Source: Naegleria gruberi
Taxonomy: Eukaryota
Length of the DNA: 64,000 nucleotides
NCBI GenBank assembly: GCA_000004985.1
Contig: GG738845.1
Reading direction: 5' to 3' (one strand)
Made by a program: the position numbers and the translations under genes. Positions 49,243 through 61,278 of the stretch are shown here, one piece after another. The notes under the pieces were generated by a model, which saw only the letters and a program-made list of their open reading frames with translations, did not search any database and was not told the DNA's origin. The first letter of the stretch is position 1; each line of letters begins with the position of its first letter.

Positions 49243-51327
49243 TTATTGTTGAATCTTTTCCTTGACAACCTCAAATATTTCATAAAGAGTGTCCCAATCA
49301 GGATTAATAAAGTAACACCACCTACATGTCCAATCCATTTGAGTAAAATACAACCCTCCAAATATAGCAAAATAGGAGAACAATAAGCCAGCGCTGACAA
49401 TTCTGACCCACAATGTGAATTTTCCCACCCTTCTCGTTTTTTCACTACAACAAAAGAAGCAACAGCAAAAGAATGCAGAGCATGCATATAATAGTTTGAA
49501 AGGTTTTGATTTTGAGAAATTCTTCCACTTGGAGGGTTTTCCATTCTCCAAATCCAAGTTTTCCTCCCCATCTTCATTACTAGAATTTCCAAGAAGTTTT
49601 CTCCTTTGAGGTGTCTTATTGTTCAAATCTTTCTGTTGAGCTGCTTGTTCTTCATATGGATTTGGATGTCTCATTCGTGGAATGAAAATCATTGTGGATA
49701 AGAAACCAACAAGTAATCCTCCAACGTGAGCAAAATTATCAATCCAAGGAATTAATCCAACAATTACCTGAGCGACAACTTGAATGGTAATTAGAATGAA
49801 ATCTCTTTTTGGACTTGGCATGTACCTCCAATTCATCCATAAATCTGCATAAATGCCTCCGAGAATTCCAAATAGAGAACTTGAGGCTCCAACTGTGACA
49901 ATTTCTGGAAGAAAAAGAGCACTCAATAGATTGCCACCAACACCACTAATGAGATAAATGAAGCAAACAAAGATACATCCCCAATGTCGTTCAAGTGGGA
50001 GCATGACTGACATTTGCCACATCATATTGAGGCACAAGTGAACTATTCCACCATGAAGAAATATTGGAGTGAGTAATCTATAGACTTGCCAATTGGGAGA
50101 AATAATCAAAGTACCTTGTTTGGCTCCCAATTGCACAAGAGTTGCTTCTGGTGGGCCAATTAATGGATTGACCAAGATGGACTCAAGTCCACCTAATCCA
50201 ACACTCACTGCAAACATTATTATTTGAACAATGGTCAATCCAATTGTGAGGAATGGTGTCTTTTTGTGTTCCTGATTGACAGTTCTATTGACAAGGAATG
50301 GATTTTTACTGTCTTTCATGAACTTGCTTGAAAAGTAATTGGAAACAAAGTTTTTGGATGGTTTCTGGAGGAGAACGTCATCTTGTAAATCATTTTCATC
50401 CATTACATCACCCAGAGATTGTCCATTTCCTCTTTCAAACATCAATTCTGGTGTTTCACTATTGGAATTCGATTTGCCCTTATCCTGTTTTTGAAATCCA
50501 AAAGAGTTAATTTCCTGTCTCATTCTCTTAATCTTATCATCCCATTTCTGCTTTCTTTTGAGTTGCTTAACTTGTTGTGGACTTTGTCTCTTTGGGTTGC
50601 TTGTTGGAGATGAACTTCCTTGATTCCTAGGAGAATCGTGAAGATTGAGTGGGGATGGCATTGGTGAGGAGGGAATGAGATTCCTCGTTGAGGATGCATT
50701 CGATACAGGTGATGAATAATCCACTGCACTTGGAGATTGTGATAAAATCGAAGAGTTGGAAATATTGAGTGGACCAGCACTTTGTTCCTTTAACAATTTT
50801 CTCCTAAAGAACCCTGAGAGTCCACCACCAGAATGTTTCGATTGTTGTTGTGGAGCGAGTTCTCTGGTTTTCTTTTTGGGAGTGGAATTTGCAGAGTTGG
50901 ATTCAAGATCGTTGTGGAGTGGAATTTCTTCAATTTCATCAGTCATTACCATGTCCATCAGTTCCAACATGATTGAATCGGGTCTTCTCACTCGAGGCAG
51001 GGAAGAGCTACTGCTTCTGTTTGATGACTCATTCACTCTGAGAGCTGAATAGGAGCCAGGTATACCATCAGTGTTGTTATTTACATGGTGTTCATTAGAG
51101 GAAGATTGTGGAATACTTGATGATGAAGAAGATGACGGAGGTTTTGGAACTGGCCTCAGACTAATGACATTCTCTGTAAGCTCCACAGAGATGACATCTT
51201 CAGAGGATGAAACTGATGACGAGTTTGATGTTGTAGTTGGAGGTTTATGAGAACTTAGGGAAGAGAAGGTAACACTATTCGATGGAAATGCAAATGAGTA
51301 GTTGGTACTAGTATTCGTTGAGTGCAT
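49243..51327 (-). CDS. rhomboid-family intramembrane serine protease with long S/P-rich N-terminal cytosolic region
   Basis: The C-terminal third has 6-7 TM helices. The catalytic-Ser helix is VGASSSLFGILGG (rhomboid GxSxxxFG), and the His helix is AHVGGLLVGFL. The about 390-aa N-terminus is low complexity. The extreme C-terminus CSAFFCCCFFCCSEK is Cys-dense. Confidence 0.75.
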   Translation of the reverse strand: MHSTNTSTNYSFAFPSNSVTFSSLSSHKPPTTTSNSSSVSSSEDVISVELTENVISLRPVPKPPSSSSSSSIPQSSSNEHHVNNNTDGIPGSYSALRVNESSNRSSSSSLPRVRRPDSIMLELMDMVMTDEIEEIPLHNDLESNSANSTPKKKTRELAPQQQSKHSGGGLSGFFRRKLLKEQSAGPLNISNSSILSQSPSAVDYSSPVSNASSTRNLIPSSPMPSPLNLHDSPRNQGSSSPTSNPKRQSPQQVKQLKRKQKWDDKIKRMRQEINSFGFQKQDKGKSNSNSETPELMFERGNGQSLGDVMDENDLQDDVLLQKPSKNFVSNYFSSKFMKDSKNPFLVNRTVNQEHKKTPFLTIGLTIVQIIMFAVSVGLGGLESILVNPLIGPPEATLVQLGAKQGTLIISPNWQVYRLLTPIFLHGGIVHLCLNMMWQMSVMLPLERHWGCIFVCFIYLISGVGGNLLSALFLPEIVTVGASSSLFGILGGIYADLWMNWRYMPSPKRDFILITIQVVAQVIVGLIPWIDNFAHVGGLLVGFLSTMIFIPRMRHPNPYEEQAAQQKDLNNKTPQRRKLLGNSSNEDGEENLDLENGKPSKWKNFSKSKPFKLLYACSAFFCCCFFCCSEKTRRVGKFTLWVRIVSAGLLFSYFAIFGGLYFTQMDWTCRWCYFINPDWDTLYEIFEVVKEKIQQ

Positions 51328-53302: not shown

Positions 53303-54970
53303 ATGATTTGCAAATGGCGCCAAAACATGTACAAAAAAATGTTTCAATTCCCTCAGAGCAGAGAAGATTTCATGCTCTTTGTTCAGCAGGTGGCGAGGGA
53401 GGATGTAAAGAAGTGTCTGGCTGGTATCACAACCACTCATCCCGAGTTGGTGCAACAATTTGTGAGTGTTTCACCAAAGCAACAACCCTCTCCGACACTT
53501 TATCAACAACCTCCTTTCATACAACAGCAACCTGTAATATCTAATAATCAACCATCTTCATCTCCTCCTCCAAAATTCTCCTCTTATTCAACCACACCAG
53601 CAACTAGTAATCAGGAATATACATCACATCTTTCTAGAAATGTCTCAACGAATCAAAATACAGCTCCTTCTCAAACTAAGAATAATCCAACACCAAACTC
53701 TAATCATCAACAACATGTAAATACTCCCAACAGATCCAGCACAACAACTCCAAAAACAGTGTCACCCAATAGTAAGCGAGTTCAACCACCAGTAGCTGCA
53801 ACAAATAAATCTGCATTGAAAGACAAGTCGCCCTCGCCTAATGAAAAGGTGAAGAAATCACCAACAGAAGGAAAACAGGTGACAATCTCCGAGAGACTAC
53901 TAAAGCCAACCATATCAATGCAGAAAAAGTTTGAAAAAGGTCAAGTTAAAAAGCCAACTTCTGAAAAACAATTTAAGGACCTAAGAAAGGAGCAAAACAA
54001 GTCAACTTCCTTATTATTAAAGAAGAAACCTATTACTCCAAAGAAGGATGCTAAAAAATCGAGCCCAAAACAAAATATTTCAAAAACTGTCTCTAACGAA
54101 AGTAATATCAGCACAGCAGAAAGGGAACAGGAAAATTCTGAAGACGAATCAAACATTGACAATTCTCAAGAAGAGGAATATCATGAAGAAATTATTGAAA
54201 CCAATTTGGATATTAGTAATATTTCGAATGATCCTTCAGAATCATATCATTCAAATGAATCTCAATCAACAACACCTAAGAAATCTCAACCTGCTTCAGC
54301 AAGTTCTTCACCTAAAAATCAGAATTCTTCCACGAATTCCATCCAACAACCTCCATCACCAAAAATATCACCTAAGAGAGAAGTTTCTCAGCCAGTAATT
54401 GTGAATCAATCAAACAGTGTACAATCCAAACCTTCCGAAAAATCCCTTATTTCCAATCAAACTCAACCCATCAACAGGACAAGTCCAACAAAAAGCAACA
54501 CCACAAATAACAATTCTGAACAGCCATCAATTTCTTCAATTTCAAATCATTCGAATAATCCTCAATACGATCAATTGGAAGAGATGGTTCTTAATGACCT
54601 CCTCAACGAGCTTGTAAGAGAAGAACACTTGGCAAACAAGAAACGAGCTCATCAAGAAATCAAACTGATTGAAAAAAAGAATCAACAAAACGACAAGTAT
54701 GACGAAATTCTAAAGCTATTAACTCAATTAGAACAGGACGAACAGTCGATACGAAAGAGATTTACGAATAAGAATTATTTATTGGACAGCACAATGAATA
54801 GTGAGACAAGTACAAGTACAACAGAGGAGGTGGGCGAGGAGGGGACATATGATGGGCTTGGTGTAGAAACTATCAAAACTATTCAAAAATTCAAAAGAAG
54901 AAACAAGAAATATTTTGAAGCGTTTTGTAGACCTCACGATTTATCTATTGATACTTTAATGCAAGTGTAA
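53303..54970 (+). CDS. S/T/P/N/Q-rich low-complexity protein with N-terminal CUE/UBA-like motif and C-terminal coiled coil
   Basis: The 555-aa ORF from an AAAAATG start begins KKMFQFPQSREDFMLFVQQVAREDVKKCLAGI, which carries a CUE-like MFP motif. A long disordered region follows, and the C-terminus is heptad-like. A GTAAGT site at the stop codon suggests a possible short 3' exon (see findings). Confidence 0.5.
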   Translation: MICKWRQNMYKKMFQFPQSREDFMLFVQQVAREDVKKCLAGITTTHPELVQQFVSVSPKQQPSPTLYQQPPFIQQQPVISNNQPSSSPPPKFSSYSTTPATSNQEYTSHLSRNVSTNQNTAPSQTKNNPTPNSNHQQHVNTPNRSSTTTPKTVSPNSKRVQPPVAATNKSALKDKSPSPNEKVKKSPTEGKQVTISERLLKPTISMQKKFEKGQVKKPTSEKQFKDLRKEQNKSTSLLLKKKPITPKKDAKKSSPKQNISKTVSNESNISTAEREQENSEDESNIDNSQEEEYHEEIIETNLDISNISNDPSESYHSNESQSTTPKKSQPASASSSPKNQNSSTNSIQQPPSPKISPKREVSQPVIVNQSNSVQSKPSEKSLISNQTQPINRTSPTKSNTTNNNSEQPSISSISNHSNNPQYDQLEEMVLNDLLNELVREEHLANKKRAHQEIKLIEKKNQQNDKYDEILKLLTQLEQDEQSIRKRFTNKNYLLDSTMNSETSTSTTEEVGEEGTYDGLGVETIKTIQKFKRRNKKYFEAFCRPHDLSIDTLMQV

Positions 54971-55626
54971 GTAATTCTTAATACTTTTTCCAGTTTAAAA
55001 AATTAAAAGAATTGGAGAGGATATTTTGAAGGAGGTTATTGCTGATGTTTGTGACGAATTCTCTGATGCCATGTCAGATATTGTTAAAAACACAGCCGCT
55101 CAAGAATTTGGAATGAATGAAACATCTTCAGATATTTCATCATCAATGAATAGGACAAATGATGAAGACCTTTCTACCACATTAAAATCGTCCTTGTAAT
55201 CCTGTTATTTCTTTGTTGAAGGGACGATCTTATTAAAAGACAAAAAACGTCTGTGAGCGTTACAATGAATACTAAATGTTACAGATGTTTCAGAATTAAC
55301 TTATCTGGGTCTTAAAAGTACCAAATAAGTTAGCCATTTTCTGTACAAACATCGGTTCAAAATTCTTCGATTTCTTTCATTAAAATATCAAAATAAAAAC
55401 GCTTAATTGTTGTGATAGTATTTAATTCACAAGTGGAGGGAACTTTTAGTGCGCCATTTATTTTATCATTACACAATTAGGCTGCAGTTGACGACATTAT
55501 AATAGTATAAAAAACAACAGACAAACAAGCTAGTTTGCTGGCTTTTATATTATATACTATTAAAGAACATTGATAGAGTAACAGTAATATAGTAGTAGAG
55601 TAAATTAATGAATTACAAATACAATA

Positions 55627-58443
55627 ATGGGTTCAGCACTCTCAACTCGGTACCCCTCATCAGGCTCTGAAACATCATCATCTTCGGTAAACCACACCCC
55701 TCGAGAGAGTAGAGTGGTGGTTGTTGCCAAGAGAGCCAATTCAACTCCAAACCTTAAAAGCGACTTGAATGCTTCACCTACAAATTTTTCCTCATCAAAC
55801 AATGTGGCCAATAGTGCCACCACTGTTAATACCTCTCCAACATCTTCAATGAATAATAATATATCACCTTCAATGAATCAATTTAAATTTCCAAGACATG
55901 GAGCGAATGGTTCTCGGTCATCTTCATTCACGAGAAGCATTCATGGAGGTACAATATCAACAGCAACTTCTGCTGTACAGAATGCCAACTCTGGTTCATG
56001 CAATAACATCCCTTATTCAAACAATAATAATTTTGATACAACATCAATGGCATCTATTCAGCCATCAGTTATCACAACAAGTAATATAAAACTTCAAGCT
56101 CATGAATCTGCAATATCATTACTAAGGTTCAGTCCAGGTGTAGCAAGAACTCCATCGCCCGACAATACATCAGATGCTCTAAGCTCACCAAAATCTATTG
56201 AACAATTAGTCGATAATACCCACATTTTTACAACAAGTAATCCAAGTATCGTAAGTTCTATTGGAAATAATCAGTCTCCTTCCCCTCCTACATTAAGCTA
56301 TTCCAACACTCCAACAGGAACCACGATAAGTCCTTTTAATAGTGGAAGTTGTTCCACTCCTCCTGTTCCTTCTGTTTCCACCCCACCTACTGTCACCTCT
56401 ACTTCATTGCCTCCAATTCACCCTCAAACAATTTCTGGGTTTAATAGTGTTTCAAGTCCAAATAATGTCAATTCTGCCTCCAATACTGCCTCTCCAACTC
56501 ATTTCACATTTCCTTCACACACTCCAACTCTTTATCCCATTCAAACGGAGAGCAATTCTTTACCGAGTATTGACAGAGTATCTACTCCTAATAGATATAG
56601 GCATATTCCACCGAATGCTTTTGCAGCTTTTAATTCAAACAGAAGAGGATCAGTCACTAATCCTATTGTACCTGTTGCTATTGTTGAAAATAACAATTCA
56701 GGGACCTCACATTCAATTGAAGTGACCAATTCTTTTTCGTCTCTTTCACAATGGGGCGGAATTAATGAGGAAATTATTCTTCCTGAAACACAGAAAATGA
56801 ATGAATACAATAAGGAACTTAAAAAACAGGTTAAAAGCACCATTAGTCCAGAGGATTTAACTAGATTGGAAATTGGTGACAATAGCGATATTCTCATTCA
56901 AATGCTTCTTTATAATCCAATAGCAACAGTAATCACAGATTTGGACGGGAATATTATTGTGATGAACGAACCCTTTAAGCAACTATTCAGAGTGGATGAT
57001 CCAGAAACCATTACAAGCATTTCAATATTCATTCCTAAAGAATACAGAAAATTTCATGAAAAGATTCTTAGAAAATATAAGAAAAAGAACAGACCAAAGA
57101 TTAAGAGAGTAACGTTGGGATTAACACAATATGGTGACAAAATTCCAATATCCATATCAGTCACCTCTTCTGAGCTTCAAAGTTCTGGAAAACCTGTCTA
57201 TATTTGTTTTATCAAGGATCTTACAAGTGAATTCAAACTTAACACCCTAGACGTCATGTATCAAAATGTTACAGGACTTTCTTCTATTCCTATCATTGGT
57301 ATAGACCAAGATTGTAGAATTACATTATTTAATCATGCAGCCGAAGAGACTTGGATGATTAGTAAAACAGAGGTACTCGAAAATAATGTTAAAATTCTAA
57401 TGCCAGAGGCAACAGGAAAGGTGCATGACAAATTTGTGACTGAGTATATTATTGGTAAAAGAGAAAAATCAGTCATTGACAAAGTTAAGCAAGTCATTGG
57501 AAGAAGAGTTGGAAATGGCAAAGAATTCCCACTAGAAATTAAGGTGGCTGAGGTTAAGCACGAACTCAACAACAAGAGATCATTCGTTGCATTTTTAAGA
57601 GATTTAACAGCTGTCATGACTGCAAGAGAGTTTCAGTTGACTCTTTACCCAGAAAAAGTTGTAAATATGTTAGAGTCAGGAGAAAGAACTATTCACCATC
57701 ACCACACTTGTGCCAGTGTTTTGTTTTGTGATATTGTTGGTTTTACAGAAATATCTAGACAAATGGAAAGTAATGAATTGGTGATGATTTTGGATGAAAT
57801 TATTTCAATGTTCGACAATCATCTGTTAAGCAAATACAGAATTGAAAAGATTAAAACAATGGGTGACAATTATATGTGTGCAACTGGACTGGATGACAGT
57901 ACTGACCATGCGAATAATATTGTTGAGGCTGCTATTGAAATGCAAAAATTAATGCATGAATTTAATGAGAGACATGCCGAATTGAGACTTAGATTTCCAG
58001 ATCATTGCAACAATTTTGGACAAGTTATTTCTGTAAGAGTTGGTGTTAATTCGGGAGATTTAGTAGCAGGTATTGTTGGTAACAGAAAACCAGTTTATGA
58101 TGTTTTTGGAGATAATGTCAATCTTGCCTCAAGAATGGAAAGTTCAGGAATTGAATCACAAGTCCAAATCACTCCAAAAACATATAGCTTATTGAAAAAT
58201 GAATTGAAACAATATTTTACAATAAGAAGGGATAACAAGGTTAAAGGTATTGGTCTAATGGATACGTACATTACAAATCTCTCCCCCGAAAGTTTTGATA
58301 TGAAAAGTGCAAGAATTAATTCTCGTCACGCTCATCAAAACTCTGGAATACCTAATATTGGAGATATTGATGAGCATTCATTCTCTCTAACATCCACTTC
58401 CATTGAAGACGATATTGATGGAGTTGAACATTCGAATTTATAA
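55627..58443 (+). CDS. soluble PAS-PAS-adenylyl cyclase (class III nucleotidyl cyclase catalytic domain)
   Basis: The 938-aa ORF has a roughly 390-aa S/T/N/P-rich N-terminus. Two PAS-like modules follow (..IATVITDLDGNIIVMNEPFKQLF.. and ..IIGIDQDCRITLFNHAAEETWMI..). The C-terminal cyclase domain carries FCDIVGFTE, KIKTMGDNYMCATGL, VRVGVNSGDLVAGIVGNRKPVYDVFGDNVNLASRMESSG. The Lys before T in KIKT and the Asp in PVYDVFG are the adenylyl (not guanylyl) specificity residues. Confidence 0.78.
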   Translation: MGSALSTRYPSSGSETSSSSVNHTPRESRVVVVAKRANSTPNLKSDLNASPTNFSSSNNVANSATTVNTSPTSSMNNNISPSMNQFKFPRHGANGSRSSSFTRSIHGGTISTATSAVQNANSGSCNNIPYSNNNNFDTTSMASIQPSVITTSNIKLQAHESAISLLRFSPGVARTPSPDNTSDALSSPKSIEQLVDNTHIFTTSNPSIVSSIGNNQSPSPPTLSYSNTPTGTTISPFNSGSCSTPPVPSVSTPPTVTSTSLPPIHPQTISGFNSVSSPNNVNSASNTASPTHFTFPSHTPTLYPIQTESNSLPSIDRVSTPNRYRHIPPNAFAAFNSNRRGSVTNPIVPVAIVENNNSGTSHSIEVTNSFSSLSQWGGINEEIILPETQKMNEYNKELKKQVKSTISPEDLTRLEIGDNSDILIQMLLYNPIATVITDLDGNIIVMNEPFKQLFRVDDPETITSISIFIPKEYRKFHEKILRKYKKKNRPKIKRVTLGLTQYGDKIPISISVTSSELQSSGKPVYICFIKDLTSEFKLNTLDVMYQNVTGLSSIPIIGIDQDCRITLFNHAAEETWMISKTEVLENNVKILMPEATGKVHDKFVTEYIIGKREKSVIDKVKQVIGRRVGNGKEFPLEIKVAEVKHELNNKRSFVAFLRDLTAVMTAREFQLTLYPEKVVNMLESGERTIHHHHTCASVLFCDIVGFTEISRQMESNELVMILDEIISMFDNHLLSKYRIEKIKTMGDNYMCATGLDDSTDHANNIVEAAIEMQKLMHEFNERHAELRLRFPDHCNNFGQVISVRVGVNSGDLVAGIVGNRKPVYDVFGDNVNLASRMESSGIESQVQITPKTYSLLKNELKQYFTIRRDNKVKGIGLMDTYITNLSPESFDMKSARINSRHAHQNSGIPNIGDIDEHSFSLTSTSIEDDIDGVEHSNL

Positions 58444-58496: not shown

Positions 58497-58808
58497 ATGC
58501 AACAAGTTGATGATAATTCATCGGATGAATATGATGACATTCACTTGGTGTTCGACATTCCGGATTTTAATTTAATTGAAAATTTAAAATTTGAAAAGTA
58601 TTCAATTATTGGGATGGACACTGATAGACCAATGGTGAAAATCGACAATTTTATATTTGAAGGAAAATTTGAAAATTTACTATCGGATACTGCTATTTGT
58701 GTTGAACAATATCAATCGGACGACCATCACCATCATAAACCGACTGTTATTTCCACAAGAACTATATTAAAATTGAACAGAGTATTAATTGGACCAAAAA
58801 AGCTTTAA
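58497..58808 (+). CDS. TFIIIC subunit 6 (GTF3C6 / tau55-related / Sfc7)-like small protein
   Basis: The segment DDIHLVFDIPDFNLIENLKFEKYSIIGMDTDRPMVKIDNFIFEGKFENLLSDTAICVEQ matches the GTF3C6 core (LVLVELSGIIDSDFL..C...K.LGIDTERPILQVD..VFAGEYEDTLGTCV.FEE). Confidence 0.55.
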   Translation: MQQVDDNSSDEYDDIHLVFDIPDFNLIENLKFEKYSIIGMDTDRPMVKIDNFIFEGKFENLLSDTAICVEQYQSDDHHHHKPTVISTRTILKLNRVLIGPKKL

Positions 58809-58983: not shown

Positions 58984-60192
58984 ATGAGCAACAACCAACA
59001 AGGAAATTACATTAATTTTCGGCCTTCATCATCAAATAATGGTGGCGGAGGTAGTTATGGTGGATCATCATCATCATCCTCCTCTAAGAAACAACACAAA
59101 TATCCAAAACGTCTGAGTCAAAATCAAGAAAAGACTAAATCATCATCAGGAAGTGAAAATATTTATCGACCACAACTTGCTGCACCAAGCAATGCACCAC
59201 TTCCATCAGCAGAAGAAATGTATAATAGTAGAACTAATCAAGATAGAGACACTAGAAACAAATCACCTATTAAACCGTTAAGAAATTTCAACAATTGGGT
59301 TAAAGGAGTATTGATCCATAAATACGTACCAACACAATCAACAGTTTTGGATATTAGTTGCGGAAAGGGAGGTGATTTATTTAAATATCACTTTCGTAAT
59401 ATCAAGAATTATGTTGGTGTAGATATTGCTCTTTCATCTCTTGTAGATTGTATTAACAGATATAATGAAAATTCAACACAATTTAAATTTCCAATGTCTC
59501 TAGTTCATGCTGATGTAGGAAGGGTATGTATTTTGATTTATTTATTATTTTGAACTTTTTAGAGATCAATTGAATCAGCTTTACCTAGAGGACTGCTCTT
59601 CGATGCTGTCAGTTGTCAATTTGCTGTTCACTACATGTTTGATGCTGAAGAGCATGCTAGAACTCTCTTGAGAAACGTTTCTGAGAGATTGAAAATTGGT
59701 GGTAAATTTATTGTCACAACGTCAGATGCCTATGTTCTTGTAAAAATGTTAAGGGCAGCTCAAGGCCTTACTCTTAAGAATGAGGTGTTCGAAGCAACTT
59801 TCCATTGCACTAGTGAAAAATCATTCCCTCAAACATTTGGTAATCGTTATGATTTCCAATTAGTAGATGCTGTTGATAGATGTGCTGAATATCTTGTTCC
59901 TCCAAAACATTTCATTGATTTGGCCAAGGAACATAATTTGTCCCTTGTTGAACATTTGAATTTCCATGATTTTTATCAAAAGTATGGCAGTAATCAAGAA
60001 ACTAAGGTAAATGTTAAACCAGAACTCAAATTGGAAGGTATGACAGAAGATCAATGGACTGCCATCTATTTGTACAGAGCTTTTGTTTTTGAAAAGATTG
60101 GAGATGACACCTCACTAGTTCAAGATTATCAATTTAATCAACCTTCAGGATATAGAAAACTTTCTGAATCTGACATTATCTCACTTAAATAA
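58984..60192 (+). CDS. RNMT: mRNA cap guanine-N7 methyltransferase (RNMT/Abd1); join(58984..59523,59563..60192)
   Basis: Exon 1 encodes NFNNWVKGVLIHKYVP..TVLDISCGKGGDLFKY (SAM motif I), VGVDIALSSLVDCINRY and HADVGR before a GTATGT donor at 59524. The 39-nt intron ends TTTTTAG. Exon 2 encodes LLFDAVSCQFAVHYMFDAEEHARTLLRNVSERLKIGGKFIVTTSDA...YDFQL, matching RNMT (FD.CSCQFVCHYSFES.EQA..MLRNA.ERL.PGGYFIGTTP). Confidence 0.82.
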
Positions 60193-60393
60193 ACACCCTA
60201 GTATTTTGTTAACTTGAACTTCAATTCTAAATTAAAACCATCAAGACCATTTAATATCCACGACAATTATAACCTACAACAACCTTCATACAGAAAACAA
60301 CTTTATTTTTACCTCAAGGTTCACCTTTGTAGTTGAAATAAAGTCATTGAGTGCACTTTGAAATCTCTATCAACAAGTAAGAAAAAAAAAACA

Positions 60394-61278
60394 ATGAGCA
60401 AGAACTTCAACTTTAGATCTGAGAAAGTGTCGTCATCCAGTACTGCTTCCACCAGTGGTAGTAGCAGTGGCAACAAGAAGGATGTTACCAAGACAAGTTC
60501 TATGTTTAAATCGACCAAGCCAACTGAAAATAATTCAACAACCACCACTATTACATATAAGGACATGCCAATAACTTTCAAAAAGGAAGATGTCGAAGTG
60601 ATATCGAACAGTGGCATTGTTCTCATCAAGACTTTTAGAAATCATCCAAACCTCCAACAAGATTTAATTAATTACTGCCTCAGTGCATTGAGAGGAAATG
60701 AGGAGGGCATAACTGGAACTGAATTTCCTACCGATGAAACAACCTTTCAAAAGTGTTTCCTCGACATTCCATTCGAACAATTCAACTCTAAATTTGCCGA
60801 CATTATTTGTGGAGCAGCCATGAAAGTAGCCAAAGAACATTGCAAAATATTACAAGACTATCAAGATGATTTCCGTATAGCTCAACTATGCTACTATACC
60901 AATAAGGGAAAGCTAGGATGGCACAGAGATAGAATTAGTGGATTAACCCCAGAGGAGCAACATTTAATAGTAAGTCCTGTGGTATCCATGTCTTTAGGCA
61001 ATGATTCTATATTCAGTTACAAACTCAATACTATCAATGAAACCACTGGAAAATTAGAATATGGAACGGAAGCCATCGATCTTCAATTGAAATCTGGAGA
61101 TATTCTCATCTTTGGAGCCACTCAACGAATGTTCTATCACTGTGTTAAAAGAATTATTCCATCAACCAATCACCACAAACTGGATATGGACGGATTGAGT
61201 GGGAGAATTAATATCACACTAAGGGAGGGAACTTACTATCCAGAAAACATTGGTGCTCCAACTGCAAACTTGTTTTAA
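60394..61278 (+). CDS. AlkB-family Fe(II)/2-oxoglutarate-dependent dioxygenase
   Basis: The first ATG is at 60394 in an AAAAAAAAAACAATG context, since the track start at 60358 is TTG. Motifs present are LGWHRDR (HxD), IFGATQRMFYHCV (second His) and RINITLR (RxNxTxR). The N-terminal 50 aa are S/T-rich. Confidence 0.7.
   Translation: MSKNFNFRSEKVSSSSTASTSGSSSGNKKDVTKTSSMFKSTKPTENNSTTTTITYKDMPITFKKEDVEVISNSGIVLIKTFRNHPNLQQDLINYCLSALRGNEEGITGTEFPTDETTFQKCFLDIPFEQFNSKFADIICGAAMKVAKEHCKILQDYQDDFRIAQLCYYTNKGKLGWHRDRISGLTPEEQHLIVSPVVSMSLGNDSIFSYKLNTINETTGKLEYGTEAIDLQLKSGDILIFGATQRMFYHCVKRIIPSTNHHKLDMDGLSGRINITLREGTYYPENIGAPTANLF

Follow-up and report, generated by a model that had tools for sequence, protein, structure and literature searches.

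Two FixL-type PAS domains in front of a class III cyclase in Naegleria gruberi: a candidate heme-regulated adenylyl cyclase with relatives in other Discoba

The characterised protist precedent for O2-controlled synthesis of cyclic AMP (cAMP) is HemAC-Lm (PMC7719234; PMC11259077), a Leishmania enzyme in which, as in the other trypanosomatid OACs, an N-terminal globin acts as heme sensor for one class III cyclase domain, in a protein that lacks transmembrane segments. OACs were described as a trypanosomatid innovation (PMC7719234), and HemAC-Lm is the sole entry with adenylate cyclase output in a 2024 table of heme gas receptors (PMC11259077); it was also the only heme sensor coupled to an adenylyl cyclase that was found in the literature searched. 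Heme sensing by PAS domains has been described in FixL of Bradyrhizobium and Sinorhizobium and in DosP of Escherichia coli, whose outputs are a histidine kinase and a cyclic di-GMP phosphodiesterase, respectively. Here we describe a Naegleria gruberi gene located at positions 55627..58443 of a 64,000-nucleotide stretch of contig GG738845.1 (assembly GCA_000004985.1; hereafter the window), which encodes two PAS domains homologous to the heme-PAS of FixL and DosP followed by a class III cyclase with adenylyl-type residues. We consider it probable, from the pattern of conserved residues, that the product is a homodimeric adenylyl cyclase regulated by gas or redox state through heme-PAS domains, and probably N-acylated.

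The layout itself is shared with bacterial and cyanobacterial PAS- or GAF-PAS class III cyclases (CyaB1-like) and with mPAC, in which PAS domains and a helical linker also precede a homodimeric cyclase with the Lys/Asp pair; the bacterial and cyanobacterial cyclase domains are 35-43% identical to the Naegleria domain. mPAC, a LOV-cyclase, senses light by means of a flavin. Naegleria is reported to have at least 81 cyclases (PMC9928731) and 50-80 PAS proteins (PMC10468136), and PKA, RegA and adenylate cyclases are present in it (PMC5055082). Given such numbers of cyclases and PAS proteins, the occurrence of a PAS-cyclase in this organism is unsurprising in itself. The first-pass annotation of the window had described the architecture as bacterial-style and had argued that it was new by comparison with ACA, ACB (AcrA) and ACG of Dictyostelium. 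The layout stands but its novelty does not, bacterial PAS-cyclase fusions being common and Naegleria being rich in cyclases and PAS proteins. The comparison with Dictyostelium is inapplicable, since the gene belongs to N. gruberi and its closest relatives are found in Heterolobosea and Jakobida; the class III catalytic fold alone is common to it and the Dictyostelium enzymes, while organism and supergroup differ. In an exact-sequence look-up the protein matched an uncharacterised N. gruberi protein, XP_002683265.1, and a dictyostelid origin was rejected on this match.

Architecture and catalytic residues

The features of the gene are listed below with their positions in the window, their strand and, in brackets, the basis on which they were assigned.

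55627..58443 (+): complete single-exon gene, 938 amino acids, ATG start, TAA stop (open reading frame listing, exact-sequence look-up)
55627..55644 (+): N-terminal MGSALS, candidate N-myristoylation signal with Gly2 and Ser6 (sequence reading)
55627..56826 (+): low-complexity N-terminal region rich in S/N/T/P, residues 1-400 (composition, no Pfam match)
56914..57228 (+): PAS1, FixL-type, residues 430-534 (match to FixL structure 1d06, column analysis, AlphaFold2 model)
57055-57057 (+): H477 of PAS1, equivalent of the proximal His
57106-57108 (+): R494 of PAS1, equivalent of FixL Arg220
57280..57612 (+): PAS2, FixL-type, residues 552-662 (Pfam PAS at 552-659, NCBIfam FixL and DosP models, 1d06)
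57424-57426 (+): H600 of PAS2, equivalent of the proximal His; the Arg220 position is occupied by Lys
57613..57699 (+): helical linker from the RDLT motif of PAS2 to the cyclase, including the segment LTLYPEKVVNML and an HHHH run
57700..58272 (+): class III (IIIa-like) cyclase domain, residues 692-882 (PF00211, PDB matches, Foldseek)
58273..58440 (+): C-terminal tail, residues 883-938, showing little conservation and ending in an acidic stretch (alignment)

The open reading frame (ORF) is uninterrupted, with an in-frame stop at 55609, 18 nt 5' of the ATG. Its product is identical to N. gruberi XP_002683265.1 (EFC50521.1, NAEGRDRAFT_45237, UniRef D2UYQ8), which is annotated as "predicted protein". 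As this public model equals the ORF exactly, the single-exon reading of the 938-amino acid gene, already proposed in the first-pass annotation, is confirmed. The locus is thus a real N. gruberi gene, already public as an uncharacterised protein whose domains are recognised by routine annotation; what is new here, all of it computational, is the interpretation of the PAS domains as heme sensors, the recognition of a family that extends across Discoba, and the acylation motif.

A search against Pfam placed Guanylate_cyc in one stretch only (residues 692-882, E 9e-50; PF00211 scored 169 bits against a curated cut-off of 21.9), PAS and PAS_9 in two stretches each and PAS_8 at 431-463. Residues 405-890 were modelled with AlphaFold2 on the basis of an alignment of 30 sequences; the model has a mean predicted local distance difference test score of 87.9 and contains two PAS folds, a helical connector and a cyclase fold, in this order. 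Compared with the PDB by Foldseek, the model matched soluble guanylate cyclase chains, full-length DosP, the FixL tandem PAS dimer 8js5 (target TM-score 0.66, the two Naegleria domains superposing on PAS-A and PAS-B) and many cyclase catalytic domains (target TM-score ~0.8). Animal soluble guanylate cyclase, the top whole-model structural match, is heme-regulated and likewise runs from PAS through a helix to the cyclase, but it is a heterodimer that makes cyclic GMP under an H-NOX sensor, whereas the Naegleria protein has no H-NOX, is expected to be a homodimer and carries ATP-type residues. The PAS-PAS-cyclase layout, and with it the presence of a PAS fold within residues ~400-650, is therefore borne out by Pfam, by the FixL structure matches, by the model and by Foldseek.

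Residues 1-400 consist of Ser (20%), Asn (12%), Thr (11%) and Pro (10%) to a large extent, in agreement with the S/T/N-rich N-terminus described earlier; this region is probably disordered, and a sequence comparison with the N. fowleri protein revealed nothing conserved past the MGS start. No transmembrane segment was found in the whole protein, as had been claimed: the highest Kyte-Doolittle mean over 19 residues is 1.32 and is located within the folded domains.

By sequence, the cyclase domain comes closest among solved structures to the C2 domain of mammalian AC5, AC9 and AC8 and to Rv1625c of mycobacteria. The metal-binding residues D702 and D747 are present, the substrate-specifying positions are occupied by K743 (in EKIKTMGD, which also carries D747) and D825 (in PVYDVFGD), and the transition-state residues N832 and R836 as well as R804 are found in the same chain; D702, D747, N832, R836 and R804 are aligned with residues of the C1 and C2 domains of AC5 and AC9. 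The segment PVYDVFGDNVNLASRM holds D825, N832 and R836. Five of these residues (D702, K743, D747, R804 and D825) do not vary among the 11 family members compared. In mammalian adenylyl cyclases the catalytic residues are divided between C1 and C2, where the equivalent of R804 in C1 is said to contact phosphates, and a complete set in one chain is a hallmark of homodimeric class III enzymes. With all seven residues in a single chain and a single Guanylate_cyc stretch, a homodimer is to be expected; the absence of a second cyclase domain and the need for homodimerisation that had been noted earlier agree with this prediction. The adenylyl-type pair noted at the same time proved to be invariant in the family, and this Lys/Asp pair indicates an ATP-specific cyclase, so that the product is a putative adenylyl cyclase.

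These same residues bear on whether the protein could instead be a guanylyl cyclase, an enzyme of mixed specificity or a dead pseudo-cyclase, which we regard as improbable. The orthologues bear the UniProt-style name 'Guanylate cyclase domain-containing protein', but the name merely mirrors the title of the Pfam family, and K743 and D825 stand where guanylyl cyclases have Glu and Cys/Ser-type residues. A further argument for these readings is the N. fowleri model XP_044569006 (P0122), which is devoid of 14 residues of the catalytic core (VFGDTVNMASRMES), including the transition-state Asn and Arg. This gap, however, resembles a gene-model artefact, probably a wrongly predicted intron, and the metal-binding and transition-state residues are all present in the N. 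gruberi protein, whose top sequence matches are adenylyl cyclases.

FixL-type residues in the sensor domains

Submitted separately to a search of the PDB, PAS1 (residues 405-545) and PAS2 (residues 540-670) both gave the FixL heme-PAS 1d06 as best match (E 1e-7 and E 7e-10, respectively), followed in both cases, after FixL, by E. coli DosP (DOS). The NCBIfam models for FixL and DosP also match the protein. The residues found at the heme-pocket positions of Bradyrhizobium FixL (BjFixL) are given below; FixL numbers were derived from the 1dp6 chain in the structure-search alignment of PAS2.

BjFixL His200: H477 in PAS1; H600 in PAS2
BjFixL Arg206: Lys (K483) in PAS1; Glu in PAS2
BjFixL Tyr207: Tyr in PAS1; Tyr in PAS2
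BjFixL His214: Lys in PAS1; Ser in PAS2
BjFixL Ile215 (distal pocket): Ile in PAS1; Val in PAS2
BjFixL Arg220: R494 in PAS1; Lys in PAS2
BjFixL Leu236 (distal pocket): Ile in PAS1; Ile in PAS2
BjFixL Ile238 (distal pocket): Val in PAS1; Val in PAS2

The proximal His, a residue of the F-alpha helix, is thus aligned to H477 (IFIPKEYRKFHEKILRKY) and to H600 (ILMPEATGKVHDKFVTEY), Tyr207 is shared by both domains, and Arg220, the O2-contacting residue of FixL, has its equivalent in PAS1. Only one of the two PAS domains is known to bind heme in FixL and in DosP, while the Naegleria protein has the His in both.

For a wider comparison, a small hidden Markov model was made by combining the two PAS domains of N. 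gruberi with the two FixL sequences, and the columns corresponding to His200, Tyr207 and Arg220 were read for each PAS match. Among about 20 members of the PAS-cyclase family the first column is His in most PAS domains, Tyr and Arg being nearly as constant, and in the family alignment A2 neither H600 nor Y607 varies. Two kinds of control were used, GAF/PAS-cyclases of cyanobacteria and a further PAS-cyclase of N. gruberi (P0328, 606 aa); in these, each of the three columns is occupied by an unrelated residue or a gap. The signature therefore marks this clade and does not arise simply from placing PAS domains in an alignment with FixL.

The nearest relatives of these PAS domains outside the cyclase family are five multi-PAS proteins (P0128, P0131, P0138, P0167 and P0177) of ~770 to 3,560 residues with 6-13 tandem FixL-like PAS domains. 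The proximal His was present in every domain read, usually together with Tyr and Arg. In an exhaustive search of 1.8 billion representative proteins, which gave 49,638 matches at E < 0.001, the top matches after the orthologue were giant proteins, of 2-5 thousand residues with ~13 PAS repeats. Two of the largest multi-PAS proteins have an N-terminal TPR_TmcB region; one multi-PAS protein comes from the diplonemid Sulcionema specki, the others including uncultured sources. Heme in every repeat, if borne out, would make these proteins remarkable for the number of hemes that they carry.

The first-pass annotation had proposed redox, oxygen or light as possible inputs and had suggested a look for cofactor-binding motifs. 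A candidate motif of this kind was found for heme, the His/Tyr(/Arg) signature, which favours the gas and redox part of the proposal. Light fared differently. That the protein is a flavin cyclase gated by light through a LOV or BLUF domain, like photoactivated adenylyl cyclases, gains some appeal from the BLUF photoactivated cyclases of Naegleria (PMC9928731), yet no BLUF match was obtained with Pfam, no LOV flavin-cysteine motif (GxNCRFLQ-type, at the E-alpha position) occurs in PAS1 or PAS2 and the nearest structures are heme-PAS and not LOV, so that we give this explanation next to no credit. Globin and H-NOX were also without Pfam match in the protein, globin even when matches with E values as high as 1 were admitted. 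On these grounds sensors of the light, flavin, globin and H-NOX types were rejected.

Between PAS2 and the cyclase, the segment from RDLT onward (RDLTAVMTAREFQLTLYP) is identical in three Naegleria species, which share only ~60% identity overall. One linker Pro is invariant in the family (P271 of alignment A2), helices are predicted across the linker in the AlphaFold2 model, and the LTLYPEKVVNML stretch bears what we take to be a likeness to the "cyclase transducer element" of class IIIa/b cyclases. An HHHH run (57691-57702, residues 689-692) stands directly before the first cyclase strand and reads HKYH in the other Naegleria species.

Several observations weigh against a heme-regulated enzyme and have to be set beside the signature. 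The heme-binding reading is based on homology and conserved columns. The His column has exceptions: the family members P0286, P0287 and P0221 have Leu in PAS1, and in P0219, which is more remote, the early PAS domains also depart from His. PAS2 has no equivalents of Arg206 and His214, and at its Arg220 position Lys, His or Gln is found in three Naegleria species; with all three residues missing, its ligand chemistry may differ from that of FixL. A eukaryotic PAS from the same heme-PAS cluster, that of PASK, has lost heme binding (PMC10468136), so that membership in this cluster is insufficient as proof. Finally, a heptad periodicity, which would have favoured coiled-coil signalling, was looked for in the linker lengths of the family, but these are 16, 20, 22 and 26 residues and form no clean series; for the segment between PAS2 and cyclase we therefore claim no more than a conserved helical connector.

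The main rival explanation draws on these points. It holds that the protein is an active adenylyl cyclase whose PAS domains are heme-less, serving for dimerisation, as a scaffold or for another ligand or partner, the enzyme being constitutive or responsive to inputs other than gases. The PASK example, the Leu residues in the PAS1 His column and the missing Arg206, His214 and Arg220 equivalents in PAS2 of Naegleria are all in its favour. It must nevertheless account for His, Tyr and Arg being conserved in the majority of the family's PAS domains and in nearly all domains of the multi-PAS relatives while absent from the control PAS-cyclases, a conservation that is hard to explain without a cofactor role, and for the retention of the hydrophobic residues of the distal pocket. 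We judge this explanation to be rather unlikely, though a serious contender, and retain heme-PAS regulation as the probable reading.

The PAS-cyclase family and the genomic setting

A search with the family profile separated a PAS(2-3)-cyclase group, with scores of at least 557 bits, from Andalucia godoyi at 405 bits and from metazoan and cyanobacterial cyclases at ~340 bits or less. Besides N. gruberi, the named species represented in the family are N. lovaniensis, with 59% identity, N. fowleri (XP_044569006), Acrasis kona (AKO1_010388), Percolomonas cosmopolitus and Andalucia godoyi (ANDGO_07835). The family accordingly spans Heterolobosea and Jakobida, its named members being Discoba only. 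Contigs of the uncultured members carry genes for Ras/Arf, zf-MYND, WD40 and EMC3 and are therefore eukaryotic. When only the PAS-PAS segment was submitted to a word-indexed protein search, one match was obtained and the query itself was missed, so that the result was uninformative.

A second N. gruberi sequence (P0002) differs from the gene at 10 alignment positions, five in the low-complexity N-terminal part and five in the C-terminal tail (column 899 on), with zero differences in residues 304-898. Together with the orthologues in N. lovaniensis and N. fowleri and the identical linker, this pattern is consistent with purifying selection. The N. lovaniensis model XP_044543891 (P0003, 590 aa) starts at an internal Met corresponding to about residue 186 of the N. 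fowleri protein and is probably truncated at the N-terminus. Among further PAS-cyclase paralogues of Naegleria, XP_044566589 of N. fowleri (P0207 / P0279, 635 aa) keeps His/Tyr/Arg in its PAS; the N. gruberi paralogue P0328 does not.

The distribution also speaks to a recent transfer from bacteria or a contaminant in place of a native eukaryotic gene. PAS-cyclase fusions are abundant in bacteria, as exemplified by a Leptospiraceae protein with three PAS domains and a cyclase, and eukaryotic PAS domains are thought to be of bacterial derivation (PMC10468136). Bacterial PAS-cyclases, however, appear only below the gap in score (557 to 405 to ~340 bits), and those of cyanobacteria combine far lower family-profile scores than the Discoba proteins with PAS domains devoid of the His/Tyr/Arg signature. 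The high-scoring named members are all Discoba, orthologues occur in five other named species of this group, and the contigs of uncultured relatives bear the eukaryotic genes mentioned above. The N. gruberi gene lies on a 1.56 Mb contig, has a G+C fraction of 0.36 against 0.33 for the window and has ordinary eukaryotic genes as neighbours, such as those for TFIIIC subunit 6, a cap methyltransferase interrupted by an intron, and a rhomboid. Recent bacterial transfer or contamination is on this evidence very improbable.

The neighbouring ORFs are given below; those with a domain match are eukaryotic genes unrelated to the cyclase:

53303-54970 (+): upstream ORF of 555 aa, low-complexity, rich in S/N/P/K/Q, no Pfam match
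49243-51327 (-): rhomboid protease ORF, no evident link to the cyclase
58497-58808 (+): small ORF, 54 nt 3' of the cyclase stop, match to the TFIIIC subunit 6 triple-barrel domain (E 8e-7)
58984-59553 and 59635-60192 (+): two ORFs that match positions 16-126 and 155-314, respectively, of the profile for the mRNA (guanine-N7) methyltransferase domain
60358-61278 (+): 2OG-Fe(II) oxygenase superfamily ORF (PF13532), no evident link to the cyclase

The two methyltransferase ORFs look like halves of one cap methyltransferase gene with an intron of ~80 nt between them, and the spacing between the cyclase stop and the TFIIIC subunit 6-like ORF is very tight. The 555-aa ORF and the N-terminus of the cyclase both illustrate the abundance of low-complexity coding sequence in the region. 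An operon-like arrangement or functional linkage of the cyclase to its neighbours was rejected, the flanking genes being unrelated housekeeping genes.

Possible membrane attachment, signal path and role

The first-pass annotation had described the enzyme as soluble. The absence of a transmembrane segment agrees with this description, but free solubility is doubtful in view of the N-termini. An MG start was found in 9 of the 14 members checked, several of them with Cys at position 4 or 5: N. gruberi begins with MGSALS, N. fowleri with MGSSVS, Acrasis with MGNSCLSS and Andalucia with MGACGSKQ, and uncultured members with MGNSCISH, MGNICIPH, MGNSQRRE, MGNKIHS and MGNKPVQ. A Gly2, often with a Cys close by, is typical of proteins that are N-myristoylated and, in some cases, palmitoylated as well. 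These motifs suggest that the enzyme is probably N-acylated and membrane-tethered.

In the heme-PAS reading that we favour, each PAS domain would hold a b-type heme on its proximal His, H477 in PAS1 and H600 in PAS2. The PAS dimer would be shifted when the heme takes up O2, CO or NO or changes its redox state, and the shift would pass through the conserved helical linker and the cyclase-transducer-like segment to the catalytic dimer, to which each chain would contribute D702/D747 for metal binding, K743/D825 for adenine selection, N832/R836 for the transition state, and R804. The resulting change would alter cAMP synthesis, its direction (on or off) not being predictable from sequence. Myristoylation at Gly2 of MGSALS would keep the enzyme at a membrane rather than in the cytosol.

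Such an enzyme would stand beside the trypanosomatid OACs, which are likewise of Discoba, likewise join a heme sensor (predicted in the Naegleria protein) to a single class III cyclase domain and likewise lack a transmembrane segment. The sensors differ, a globin in the OACs and tandem PAS domains without any globin match in Naegleria, and the two groups look like independent solutions, functional analogues that do not form one family. With FixL and DosP the Naegleria protein shares homologous PAS domains, its predicted output being a class III adenylyl cyclase and its host a eukaryote. A characterised heme-PAS adenylyl cyclase was not found in the literature searched, the coverage of which is incomplete, so that this is weak evidence of novelty.

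Little is understood of oxygen sensing in free-living protists that do not have the hypoxia-inducible factor (HIF) pathway of animals. Naegleria passes from oxic to low-oxygen sediments and back, and among its species is a lethal human pathogen. As a tentative extension, to which we attach less confidence than doubt, the tandem heme-PAS cyclases may be a direct, HIF-independent sensor of O2 (or NO/CO) in free-living Discoba, turning gas tension into cAMP at the membrane, convergent with the globin-coupled cyclases of trypanosomatids and possibly steering aerotaxis, encystment or the amoeba-to-flagellate switch. Should the PAS domains prove not to bind heme, the gene would be one more among the many uncharacterised sensor cyclases of Naegleria. 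If they do bind it, the protein would add to the globin-coupled enzymes another kind of heme-based adenylyl cyclase, one in which PAS replaces globin; a heme-PAS cyclase of this compact form could serve as a gas-controlled cAMP tool, and the gene and its N. fowleri orthologue would provide a testable input of O2 or other gases to cAMP signalling.

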